From: Phoronis australis
Taxonomy: Eukaryota; Animalia; Phoronida
Assembly (NCBI GenBank): GCA_002633005.1
Contig: NMRA01000450.1
Span: 307,303 to 371,302 of the forward strand
DNA: 64,000 nucleotides
Reading direction: 5' to 3'
Positions within the stretch are counted from its first letter, which is position 1, and the number at the start of each line of letters is the position of its first letter. The position numbers and the translations under genes were made by a program. The notes beneath the pieces are model-generated. The model ran no database searches. It saw nothing but the letters and a program-made list of their open reading frames with translations, and was not told the origin of the DNA. Positions 1,006 to 7,000 of this stretch are shown here, piece after piece.

Positions 1006-4000
1006 GTGAGTAGCTTGACTAGCTAGAGTTCACATGTCACTATTGCCGTTTGGTGTTATTATTATGAATATTTATTGTTTTTGGTATCAGATTAGTATTA
1101 TCTCAGGTTATTATGCCATGAATGCCATTATCCTTGCTTTGTACACTGTCATCTTGCCATCCTGCAGCAGCTTTTCTCTGTTCTTGCTCATCATAATTGA
1201 TTGAAAGGAGGGACATCTGTAGGCAAAGTCATTGTAACATTTAATGACTGAATAGTTGATTGAAAGCAGGACAATGTCATCCTATGCGATGCAGAGGTAC
1301 ATTGAATGCTTAATTCAATTGCAACTTACATTGAAAAAGAAACGGTTTCCGAGCAAGCATTTTGGCTAATTTTAAATCATTTTATATACACCGTTACTTT
1401 CAAACTTCAAATTTGATCCAGAAAATTAAACACCAGAAGTCCCCGTGACTGTAAAATGTGCAACTTTCAAGTGAAATGCGTGACCAAGAGAAGTGTGGAA
1501 AGCAGTATCATACGAAATGAAGGAAGTGTAAATTATAACAGCGTTAAGCATATTTCATCTTTTTAGCCATGATAACTGTGCACAAAGCTTGCAACTGGTA
1601 GGCTTTTGGATGAGCAGTTTTATGTGCCAGCAATGTGAACTTCGTTCCCATGAAAATATAATTGTGCTGTTGTCAAAGAGACACGCTCAAGTTTAAATAC
1701 TGATTTTTTGAAGATCTCTCGATACTCAATGGCTATTCTTCCACCCTATGAGTACCAGCCAGTCGTGTCTCCCTCCTATTTCTATCTATCTCTCTGTCTA
1801 TCTTTCCTACAGCTTGTAGTGACATAGCCCTTGAGGGCAGGGGTGGCGTCATCGAGAGCCCCAATTACCCCAATCCCTATCCGCACAACAGAGATTGTTC
1901 GTGGATCATTCACACGGACAGGGGTAACCAAGTCAACGTGACGTTCACAGACTTTAAGCTGGAATACCGCTCCTCATGCAGTGCTGATTATTTGGAGGTT
2001 TGTGAGATGCGACGCCTGCTTGGTCAGTACCATGGTCAGCACTGGCCGCGGTCACTTTTCTCTGCGCCATATCTACTACTGCATACTGTTGACAAAATAT
2101 TAAGCAAAATGCACGTCTTTATATGTTGGCATGGCATTTCCTCCTGCTTAGCCCGCTTTGTATAATTTTACATCACTGGACCAGGTGTTGTTATCCCCGT
2201 TCCATGCAAAATAGAATATCATTGCCCTACCTTTCAGCCAGATGGCACATTCCCTAGCACCACTTGATTTTAAAGAAATGTTGAGGCTTTTATAGTAGTA
2301 TTTTAGTTAACTTAGAGATGTTAGCAACTGTTAGTTGCATTGCTTGCTCACCACCGCATGCACATTACCTTCAGCACTATGTAACAACAAAGCAATAATA
2401 TTTGGACCACTTTAACAAAAAGGATGAAGTTTATCATTTTGGTCTTGGAGAAGACAACTGGTCCCACAGTGGCTTAGAATTTAGGGGATGATAGTAAATC
2501 ATGGGTGTTGTTCACACACAGTAGGACTTTTGAAATTGATATCCAAGGTCAGTGAAAGCAGTTCTTTGTGAACCCAGCCTCCCGTTCAGTAATGCTAGGA
2601 CCTCACTAAAAAGCAAGACTTCGCGAGATTACGTGAGATATTGCCGTGCATTTTTATGCGCCCACATATTTATATGTGGACACATGCCGTCATCTCCATC
2701 CATCCGGCGTCCGTTGCTCTATTTCCAAAACGCCTTGACGTATGTTCATGAAATTTTGCACACGTGTTCCTTCCGTGGATGGGACGGTATGCGCGAACTT
2801 TCGGACGGATCCAACTACCGGTGTCCCCCCTAGTGGCAATTTTAGTTTTTTACGTTTACCTTTTCTCTGTATCTTCAAAAGTACTGAACGGATTTTCATG
2901 AAATTTAGTATATAGGCGCCTATTAATAACATGACGCTATCCTCCCGTTTTCAGATGGATTTGACGTAGTTTGCGCCACCTAGTGGCCATTTTTACTGTT
3001 TTCGAGTCTTTTTTTGCGTCCACCCCTCTATCGACCGAACCGCTCAAATGATGATTGTGAAAATTGGCATGTATGTTGTCACTGCGAAGTGGACGGCTGA
3101 CGATGATTTTCGAATGACTTCGACTACTGTGGCGCCTCCTAGTGGCAGTTTTTTTTTTGTTTTTTTTGCGCCTATGGCTCTATCCCCTAAACCGTTTGCA
3201 GGATCTTTACTAAATTTAGTAAGTGTATTTATATGATGATAACAAAGGAGGACGACGACTTTCAGACAGATCTGACTACTGGTTTGCCACCTAGTGGCAA
3301 TTTTAGTTTTTTTACGTTTACCTCTGTATGTTCAAAGGTCCTCAAAGTATTTTCATAGAATATGGCATAGAGGCATCTGTTTATGAGATGACGCTATCTC
3401 TCCGTTTTCAGATGGATTCGACTTAGTTTGCGCCACCTAGGGGGCCATTTTAACTTTTTTCGAGTCTGTTTTTTTGGCGTCCACTCGTCTATCAACCAAA
3501 CCGCTTTCAGGATAATTGTGAAAATTTACATGTATGATTGTGCTATGAAGTGGACGGCTGGTGACGATTTTCCGATTTTCCTACGATTTCGACTACTTTG
3601 GCGCCTCCTAGTGGCAGTTTTGTTTTTTTGCACTCATGGCTGTATCTATTAAACCGTTTGCAGGATCTTTACTTAATTTAGCAAGTGTATTTATATGATG
3701 TTGTCAATGGATGACGACGACTTTCGGACGGATGTGACGAGTGGTCTGCCCCCTAGTGGCAATTTTAGTTTTTCTGTATCTTCAAAGGTCCTCGACAGAT
3801 TTTCATAAAATTTTGAATATAGGCATCTATTGGTGAGATGATGCTATCATCCTGTTTTTGGATGAATCAAGGTATTTTGCGCCACCTGGTGGCCATTTTT
3901 TGCTGTTTTCAAATCTTGTTTTTGGCTTCCACCCCTCGATCAGCCAAATCATTCTTGGTATGGTTTTGAAAATTGGCATGTATGTTTTCGGTGTGAAGAG

Positions 4001-7000
4001 GACGTTTGATGATGGCGACTGACTACTGTGGCGCCTCCTAGTGGTAGTTTTGTATTGCGCCCATAATTGTATCTCCAAAACCCATTTTGTTTGACAAATT
4101 TTATTCCCAGTTTTATGTTTGTGACTTTTACAAGGCATTTTCACATGAAACACAATTTTGTGACAATAAAAGTATATGAAATAAGATAATATGCGATTCA
4201 TAGTTTTGTGATAAGGTAAACAGCTGTTATGATGCCTCATTTTAGTCGGAATTAAGCGGAAAAGATCTGTAGGCGGAATTGACCATCATGGGGTGGAGAT
4301 GGCGTCTTGTCCGTTTTCTTTTGGCTTGTACTACAGCTGCCGCTGTCAGGAAGAAATGTCATGCCACAGTTTGTACTTGTATTTGTGTGTTGTTCAAGTG
4401 TTTAAAGTGAAAGTCAACATACCCACAGCAGTCAAACCTTACGCGGATAAAAATAGGTTAATAAGCAATTTGGCATGCGTGTCCAAAGGCAATATTTATG
4501 TTGTGAGGTTTCTGCATGTTGAAGCATGGCTTTCTTATGCAGGCTGTTAATAGTGTTAATGGTGTCTTGTTAGCCATTGTGCACTGTGCATGTTTGAACA
4601 AATCACTATCCAGCATGTCCCTCATTTCAGCATGCAACACGTTACTGCAGGCACCTCAAGGGGTCATCGAAAGCCCCAATTTCCCTCTCGCCTACCCCAA
4701 CAACCGTGACTGCACGTGGGTGATCGATGTTTATCAGGGCAACAGGATTGATATCACCTTCTCGCACTTTTCAATGGAGGACCACTCGGACTGCTTGTAT
4801 GATTACTTAGAGGTGTGCAGAACAATATGAACATTTGTTATCCTGTGACTGTTGAGCAGAGAATACCATACATGCCACAGTATTATATTTGTGTGTAAAA
4901 TGTCTGACGTGAACCATGAGTCTTGTTTTGTCTATGCCAGATATTGCTCGTCAGATAACTATCATTTGCGCATGGAGGTTCATTAAGTCCTTACTGTTTC
5001 CCTTAAAATACCGGTATTCATTTCACCCGTACGCACTTTGTACAGATGAACTTAAAGTGGAACTTGCACGCTAATTTTCTTATCTCTGTGATTGCTTGGT
5101 TGAATTAGTTAGAAACACCTCATACAGTGATGTGAATATGCAGTAGGTTGAAAATTGTGAAATGTTTTGAAGAACGAGTTTTGTGTGGAAAATGATCCGC
5201 AGTAAATCACTCAACCTTATGTGGTAAGTATCGTGACAGGGTGTTGGGGAATAACACTGCATGATGTGGGCTATTTGAGCCCCCAAGGCACGTCATTAGT
5301 GCAAAGGTCAACTATTTGCAAAATTTTATGTTTCCACATTTACAAGTTGTCAATGAATACAACTGCACCTTGTTTAGCATAGATAATGTTCAGGTAGCAT
5401 TGTCGTTCCTACCATACATTTTTATATAGCATAGTTAGGAGCATGCAAATACATCTTTAACTTCCGTGGTAGCCGCCATGTTCAAGTGGAATTTCATTGA
5501 ACAGATTTGGAATTCGAGCCCCCAAAACTCACTTGAATTGCTTAATGGTGTTATAAACCAGAACTTTATAGCGTGTGCACTTACCACTATAAAACTGGTC
5601 TCCGCTCAAAAGTGATGTTTGAGTTAATTCTTTAACTGGCACTTTGTTATTCCTTGAGACCATTCTTGACACTTACGTGACCTGCTGTGACAAGCTAACT
5701 TGCTGAGCCTGGTCTGAAGGAGCAACAACCTTTCTGTACTTTTGAAGCCCTGAAGTTACGTCCAATTTTATTTAAAGAACAATTTGAGACCAACCTCACA
5801 ACAGTTTTTGTGATGGGTGCTGGATTTACAGCCATGTAAAGGTTCTGTCTCGCCAAACTCTTTCCTGGAATGGCTGTCAAGCCTGTCTTTAAGCTTATTG
5901 ATGAAACAGGGTGGGGGCATGTACAAACTCGAACTTTGTGGCCTACACGTGCCTCGAATATAACACTGTCCAGTGAGCCCTTTTATACTCACTTTTACCC
6001 ACTCGGTCAGTTTACTCTGACTTGCTTGTTTTTTGAGACTGTACTGAGGACTAGCATGGTGTGATTGAACCCTTACCTTTGACTAACACACAGTGCATTG
6101 TCTATAGGCTGTGATGCTTTTAATTATTTAACTCTCCCGTGTAAAGTTCTTGACTTGAGTGCAACTCTTTGGGCATTAAACCAAGCCATTCTTTCAAGTA
6201 AATAAATACCATCGGGCCCATTTTAAAGCCACTCTTCTTACTTTAAATGTCTTGTGGTTAAGCCAATCGATACAGTCCCACAACTACAACATTAGACTAG
6301 TGCAGGTTCACTTAACAAAATTTTTAAATTTTGCCATTTATTTTTGACAGTTGTCGAAAGTTTTAGAAACTTCCAAATTCATTTATCATGTCAACACATC
6401 ATTTATCACTGTTTTAAATAATTTTGATAATTGTTTCACATGGTGTCATGTCAAAGGCAAATTTTGCTTGACTATGATAACCTCTGTTGTAGGTGCGAGA
6501 TGGACAGCAAGCCGACTCTCCTCTGATTGGTAGATTCTGCAACAGCTCTGTGCTGCCAGGACCAATCACGTCATCTTCAGACTACTTGCACATTCGCTTC
6601 GTGTCCGACTACTCTATCGCTGGCAATGGCTTCAGACTGGAGTGGGTAATCAACGGTGAGATGTACCTTCACATGCTTACGATGAATAAACAAAAATAAA
6701 GGGTGGCAGATCCAAGGTTGTGGTGTTTGCAAATACAAATGCACACATACCAGGGCTTGGAATTTTCCGCGGAAACGCGGATTTCCGCTTTTTTCAAATG
6801 TTCTGTCTGCGCATTTTATTATATTTCCGCGTAAAAAAATCGGATTTGCTATAAAATTTCCGCGGCAAATTCCTTTCTTACCACGGCGTTGCAGACGACG
6901 TTCATCTCGAAAAGCGGAAGTTGCTCTTTATGTTTTGGAGGAACGTAAATTGTCAACATTGCCGGGGCATCTGGGTAAGCGTGATGGGATTTTCAATGGC

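Follow-up and report, generated by a model that had tools for sequence, protein, structure and literature searches.

Either-or use of two exons encoding the CUB8 N-terminal half in an invertebrate cubilin gene, with a candidate Rbfox silencer at the second

Can a cubilin gene exchange part of a ligand-binding CUB domain by splicing? The question is raised by a stretch of the genome of the phoronid Phoronis australis (GenBank assembly GCA_002633005.1, contig NMRA01000450.1, positions 307,303 to 371,302 of the forward strand), hereafter the window, whose 64,000 nucleotides (nt) hold 21 CUB domains (CUB7–CUB27) of cubilin. The original prediction for this DNA placed two mutually exclusive exons for the N-terminal half (N-half) of CUB8, here called A and B, ahead of a single exon for the C-terminal half (C-half), and proposed that a splice switch between them retunes what the receptor binds. 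As described below, A and B are both transcribed, each is joined to both of its neighbors, and their usage varies by sample. The switch is thus seen as either-or junctions in RNA reads, and the retuning part of the proposal remains a plausible reading of the residues that differ. Coordinates are those of the window, and all exons lie on its + strand.

Two expressed exons for one half-domain

Exons A (1813..1997; 185 nt, 61 residues) and B (4631..4812; 182 nt, 60 residues) lie between a constitutive exon that encodes the whole of CUB7 (667..1005, phase 1-1, closest to CUB7 of PDB 3KQ4) and the single-copy exon for the CUB8 C-half (6493..6655, phase 0-1). As predicted, both are intact: their ends are AG/GT, their frames are open and their phases are 1-0. 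Each spans positions 1-60 of the Pfam CUB model, of which the shared exon (6493-6654) covers positions 62-109. At the protein level 30 of 60 aligned positions are identical, about half, as had been estimated; 57% of their bases agree, and the proportion of synonymous differences (pS = 0.90, that is, saturated) far exceeds that of nonsynonymous differences (pN = 0.31). Exon A is closest to CUB8 of PDB 3KQ4, and so, narrowly, is B (36.4 versus 35.3 bits); among 28 full-length cubilins, a comparison from which four rows including the window itself were left out, CUB8 is the top-matching domain for A in 24 and for B in 20. Two of the three motifs said to set A and B apart from the other CUB domains of the window, GVIESPN and NRDC, are indeed unique to them; the third, DYLE, also occurs in CUB25 and CUB26. 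By these sequence measures A and B are adjacent homologous exons for the same part of the domain in the same phases, as in tandem-duplicated mutually exclusive exons.

The arrangement imposes a choice on the reading frame. Inclusion of both exons leads to a TGA within B (4721-4723), 89 nt ahead of the next junction, and skipping both leads to a TAG at 6531-6533, 122 nt ahead of the next junction. A missed C-half would change this picture, and none is present between A and B: a profile built from 13 C-halves of the window found nothing in 1998-4630 and recovered the control exon at 6493 (E = 4e-25). Nor is there a third CUB8 N-half in the introns at 1006-1812, 1998-4630 and 4813-6492. An open frame says little by itself, given that copies diverged at random stay open in 9.5% of cases, and the case for two real exons is therefore made by the RNA reads together with a pN far below pS.

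Splicing was followed in three stranded raw-read RNA runs under the same species label (X2, X3 and X4), using 18-19% of each run; these sample steady-state RNA, mates were not collapsed, and junctions were listed from a floor of three reads in a run. All four junctions expected of an either-or pair are present. In X2, X3 and X4, respectively, CUB7 is joined to A (1005>1813) by 4, 3 and 2 reads (9 in total) and to B (1005>4631) by 5, 2 and 0 reads (7 in total), and the shared C-half is joined to A (1997>6493) by 1, 4 and 10 reads (15 in total) and to B (4812>6493) by 5, 6 and 0 reads (11 in total). The junctions are all GT..AG and on one library strand, with zero depth in the flanking intron bins; the two that enter the shared exon are printed as cut +2 in the junction table. 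Against these 42 reads, neither an A-to-B joint (1997>4631) nor a joint skipping both exons (1005>6493) occurs in the complete eight-row table, in which the remaining four rows are repeat joints. Co-inclusion through an alternative in-frame acceptor, of which the original prediction had singled out the CAG at 4648-4650 inside B, likewise left no reads above the floor at any in-frame AG (starts at 4525, 4543, 4651, 4738 and 4780). An additional run from an independent study, X1, consists of contigs; depth on B there matches that over the final 64 nt of the CUB7 contig, and a 1005>4631 join is implied by these depths. B is thus seen in three of four runs and in two studies.

The relative use of the two exons differs among runs. 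A accounts for 5 of 15 junction reads in X2 (33%), 7 of 15 in X3 (47%) and 12 of 12 in X4 (100%), where the depth on B is zero; X4 differs from the other runs with a Fisher p of 3e-4, calculated with mates uncollapsed. As a separate observation from low counts, the CUB7 exon (667-1005) has in X4 about one-third of the depth of the downstream exons, unlike in X2 and X3. The runs carry different exonic alleles at 710, 1901 and 6615 and so probably come from different animals, and individual and tissue are for that reason confounded in the A:B differences.

This opens the reading that B is a genetic polymorphism, missing or silent on some haplotypes, instead of one arm of a regulated switch. Besides the differing alleles and the absence of B reads from X4, the assembly is visibly polymorphic: blocks 15769-21051 and 55059-59972 hold 94-95% duplicates flanking single Ns (18652 and 57448), with a further single N at 31069. 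A and B, however, lie together on one gap-free stretch, the first N of the window being that at 18652, and the recurrence of B across runs and studies and a pN far below pS also oppose such a reading, which we regard as very improbable. A related possibility, that A and B are themselves a haplotype or assembly duplicate, was rejected, since they are 57% identical with no N between them, whereas the true artifact duplicates are 94-95% identical and lie beside Ns.

Several points weigh against a strict switch. The junction reads are few (42, from less than one-fifth of each run), and joints with fewer than three reads per run are unlisted; the 1005>4631 row carries the flag 'between: not known'; the differences in usage among runs may reflect the individual and not the tissue; and decay would conceal messages containing both A and B, so that strict exclusion at the splicing step goes beyond the reads. 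We nevertheless consider it highly probable that A and B are spliced either-or.

A candidate silencer at the exon B acceptor

Six GCATG elements (4473, 4514, 4524, 4588, 4613 and 4630) lie within 162 nt immediately before B (4473..4634, + strand), the last of them spanning the B acceptor. No other cluster of the motif in the 64-kb window is as dense, and this one is a candidate Rbfox silencer of B. Six copies fall in the 200 nt upstream of B, whereas each of the 37 constitutive exons has zero or one in that interval (Poisson p = 6e-7; dinucleotide Markov p = 5e-4), and the cluster is not a tandem repeat. Two further copies on the same strand downstream of A (2129 and 2356, within 2129..2360) are placed as would fit Rbfox activation of A, at a count that is not above background; A itself has a strong acceptor and a weak donor. 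In the available part of PMC2777236, upstream (U)GCAUG is described as repressing exons, including mutually exclusive exons of egl-15 (5B) and alpha-actinin, and the position of GCAUG relative to the exon as deciding whether Fox-1 family proteins activate or repress it. It should be noted on the other side that the motif was picked out post hoc, that 3 of 37 control regions hold some 5-mer with an equal or lower p (these being repeat-like or of low complexity), and that the full TGCATG is found in just two of the six elements before B. Weighing these, we lean toward an Rbfox-type protein that sets the A/B choice by silencing B.

Where Rbfox is present, it would bind the six GCAUG at the 3' splice site of B and block that exon, so that A would be used; where it is absent, B would be used; and messages with both exons or neither would be removed by nonsense-mediated decay. 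Decay alone could also produce the pattern, if each exon were optional and spliced independently of the other and the messages with a shifted frame, both-in or both-out, were simply lost. In both of these the early stop does lie over 50 nt ahead of the following junction, the 2.6-kb spacing between A and B excludes steric exclusion, and no competing RNA stems stand clearly above shuffled controls: in a search for docking and selector stems over 21 region pairs, with eight shuffles each, nothing exceeded chance, the best pairing, of 2127-2140 with 4353-4366, scoring 33 against a shuffle maximum of 32. Independent exons are harder to reconcile with X4, in which only A is used and the depth on B is zero, a result that requires B either to be actively silenced or to be absent, and with a GCATG cluster positioned on the B acceptor. 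We find this explanation rather unlikely. With respect to RNA structure, the intronic site 2127-2140 could pair either before B (4353-4366) or before the shared C-half (6442-6454), although not above chance in this rough shuffle test.

The class of splicing mechanism envisaged here is already known, and the GCAUG cluster on B is newly noticed. FGFR2 IIIb/IIIc and Caenorhabditis elegans egl-15 5A/5B are likewise mutually exclusive exons in the ligand-binding ectodomain of a receptor. FGFR2 IIIb and IIIc exchange half of an Ig domain. In both systems upstream (U)GCAUG serves the Fox-1 family in repressing one of the two exons, and in egl-15 the choice gives ligand specificity (available text of PMC2777236). 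The present case differs in that the receptor, cubilin, is a CUB-domain protein for the endocytic uptake of cargo, that its regulation and the effect on its ligands are predicted, and that the GCAUG-bearing exon is the downstream one (B) and not the upstream one, as is 5B in egl-15.

Predicted effect on the CUB8 binding surface

CUB8 is a domain in which such an exchange could matter. In the accessible portions of the respective sources, the human CUB5-8 structure shows intrinsic factor bound by CUB6 and CUB8 through their calcium sites (PMC6283879), P1297L in human CUB8 reduces intrinsic factor binding (PMC3826550), CUB7,8 binds albumin in a manner in which its glycans matter (PMC9485058), and mutation of Glu45 or Tyr52 in C1s changes ligand binding (PMC4222235). 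The window gene resembles vertebrate CUBN CUB5-8 (PDB 3KQ4) in domain order, in the calcium-site Glu and Asp, in a proline equivalent to P1297 in both A and B and, in A, in a sequon equivalent to N1319. Vertebrate CUBN, in contrast, has one CUB8 exon form only among the 19 pairs compared. A true intrinsic factor is not known from invertebrates.

Residue comparison bears out the prediction that both exons keep the acidic Glu and Asp and that only A has a glycosylation sequon. B aligns gap-free to C1s, with Glu49, Tyr56 and Asp57 of B (codons at 4777, 4798 and 4801) opposite C1s Glu45, Tyr52 and Asp53; A has Glu at 1962 and Asp at 1986. Of the calcium/lysine site defined by C1s Glu45, Asp53, Asp98 and Ser100, the Glu and first Asp are therefore supplied by either exon, and the remaining Asp and Ser, judged by motif position, by the shared exon. 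Two other surface features are divided between the copies. Of 28 CUB8 halves from orthologs, 26 have an N-glycan sequon, which is kept in A (NVT at 1935) and lost in B; a Tyr preceding the Asp is found in 19 of 28 orthologs, is present in B and is replaced by Ala in A. The loop formed by the last 14 residues carries an Arg in A and is more acidic in B, with charges of -1 and -5, respectively, within an ortholog range of +2 to -5. Finally, when 42 half-domains are compared across 11 other lophotrochozoans, the CUB8 N-half is the best conserved (0.614); in this gene it is the one of the 42 that falls furthest beneath their level of conservation.

It may be instead that the either-or splicing is real and the two CUB8 halves are equivalent, each copy being retained as the one used in a particular cell type, with drift behind the differences between them. 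The fold and the calcium-site residues are preserved in both, A and B are about equally diverged from orthologs (54% and 55%, versus 62% among the others, a divergence that relaxed selection also accounts for), and orthologs vary at the same loop positions. Moreover, the residue of human CUB8 that corresponds to the Tyr is Thr, and 9 of 28 orthologs are without the Tyr, so that its loss need not matter. What speaks against equivalence is that the losses are complementary, the glycan site in B and the ligand-contact Tyr in A, and that the loop charges lie near opposite ends of the ortholog range; because of these complementary losses, the ligand-retuning reading gains support. We see equivalence as a possible minority reading and retuning as plausible, and put the chance that A and B differ in ligand affinity at about even. 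Exon choice would then be predicted to change what CUB8 binds, with the calcium-site acids retained in both forms, B presenting Tyr and a more acidic loop with no glycan, and A presenting Ala, a loop Arg and a glycan site. The whole account, from an old duplication through either-or inclusion and Rbfox-type silencing of B to altered binding, strikes us as reasonably probable.

Origin of the pair, gene context and wider meaning

The best explanation for the two exons is an old tandem duplication, which would have left the gene with a duplicated exon for the CUB8 N-half, one copy or the other being joined to the single second half; synonymous sites are saturated, and a 60-column tree does not fix the age. 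In that tree both exons fall within the CUB8 group, and not as sisters, a point against this account, although forced sisterhood is not rejected (approximately unbiased test, p = 0.35). A further point against the account is that no relative carrying both exons was found among the stored proteins searched: single-exon protein searches returned no close relative of A or B, the best whole-model match among stored proteins is 51%, and a doubled CUB8 N-half occurs in 0 of 183 orthologous CUB7-13 segments. No CUB8 swap appears, among the matches listed, in 34 invertebrate cubilin pairs (mostly same-species isoforms) or 19 vertebrate pairs, 53 in all, drawn from 120 of 655 cubilin hits with up to 15 members per cluster. 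An ancient split into A-type and B-type exons common to echinoderms was considered and is not supported, the echinoderm isoform pairs having no CUB8 swap and 60 columns being too few; a one-residue insertion and the grouping of A with Acanthaster in the tree hint at it.

The literature gave a similar result. A search outside subscription journals and bioRxiv supplements found nothing linking cubilin to mutually exclusive exons, or the CUB domain to mutually exclusive exons together with exon duplication, and yielded nothing of use on whether spiralian nephridia express cubilin; nine cubilin isoforms are reported from abalone Iso-Seq, with no exclusive exons named in the available part of that source (PMC5368703). 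CUBN is missing from the supplements of two catalogs of human duplicated or mutually exclusive exons, in which FGFR2 is present as a control (PMC8373072 and PMC5740500), and from the accessible main text of PMC9741552. Together with the vertebrate pairs, this agrees with the earlier statement that no such switch is known in vertebrate CUBN.

Other invertebrate cubilins do have RefSeq models with alternative internal segments of similar length. Branchiostoma models (P0301/P0305 and P0304/P0169) swap homologous-looking segments at residues ~403-451, in the EGF region, and ~3428-3471, in a late CUB C-half. In models from six mollusc genera, both bivalves and gastropods (P0314/P0161, P0171/P0318, P0322/P0170, P0332/P0165, P0346/P0164 and P0348/P0185), the alternative segment lies in the N-terminal coil at about residue 180 and is either Arg-rich or neutral; the Arg-rich form, with its RxxR, may be a furin-like site. 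These swaps differ from the present pair in that none falls at CUB8 or CUB12 in the 34 invertebrate pairs and that they are known from protein models and not from exon structure.

The gene itself (667..60547, + strand, the end being approximate) is modeled with 40 exons in a frame that is open throughout. It is collinear with named cubilins across 2465 residues with conserved domain order, its top protein match is the cubilin of Owenia fusiformis (50.9%), and its sequence identifies it as a true cubilin ortholog, as read from CUB7-27; CUB1-6, the amnionless-binding coil and eight EGF domains are expected upstream of the window. A FastTree analysis of ~29 sequences aligning over 2000 residues, a set with no named brachiopod or phoronid, puts it beside Owenia and outside the sampled molluscs. 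The 94-95% duplicate blocks, which copy exons of CUB12 and CUB27, are interpreted as haplotype artifacts of the assembly. A dispersed repeat in the intron between A and B (2797..4082, strand not assigned) has units of ~462 bp, no CUB coding and abundant RNA from other loci; more broadly, the intronic dispersed repeats at 2434-4082, 5103-5450 and 6751-7239 show RNA depth that is hundreds-fold and originates at other loci, with strong strand bias at 2917-3247 and 6751-7239.

A second candidate pair lies in CUB12. Exon 'a' (20715..20914, phase 2-1, with a haplotype duplicate at 18315-18514) and a candidate alternative 'b' (21416..21624, phase 2-1, open frame, with no N-half of its own, and with CUB12 as top match in 10 of 28 cubilins), both on the + strand, cover the last two-thirds of the domain, and having both in or both out would shift the frame. 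Three GCATG lie upstream of 'a', one of them spanning its acceptor, in a cluster tied as next densest in the window. It is conceivable, as a tentative extension that we think likelier wrong than right, that a coordinated Rbfox-driven program swaps CUB8 and CUB12 half-domains between cell types to give cargo receptors of differing specificity, and that invertebrate cubilins have evolved such swaps repeatedly (amphioxus in the EGF region and a late CUB, molluscs in the N-terminal coil) as a level of control that is missing from vertebrate cubilin.

The either-or exon pair is real and expressed, and it lies in the binding half of CUB8 of an invertebrate cubilin. Cubilin is treated as one fixed multi-ligand receptor, and A and B provide naturally occurring variants whose one difference is in the CUB8 binding face. 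The pair can be used to seek the ligands of invertebrate cubilin and to test the roles of the loop, the tyrosine and the glycan around the CUB calcium site, and it indicates that single-isoform gene models overlook real diversity in invertebrate cubilins.

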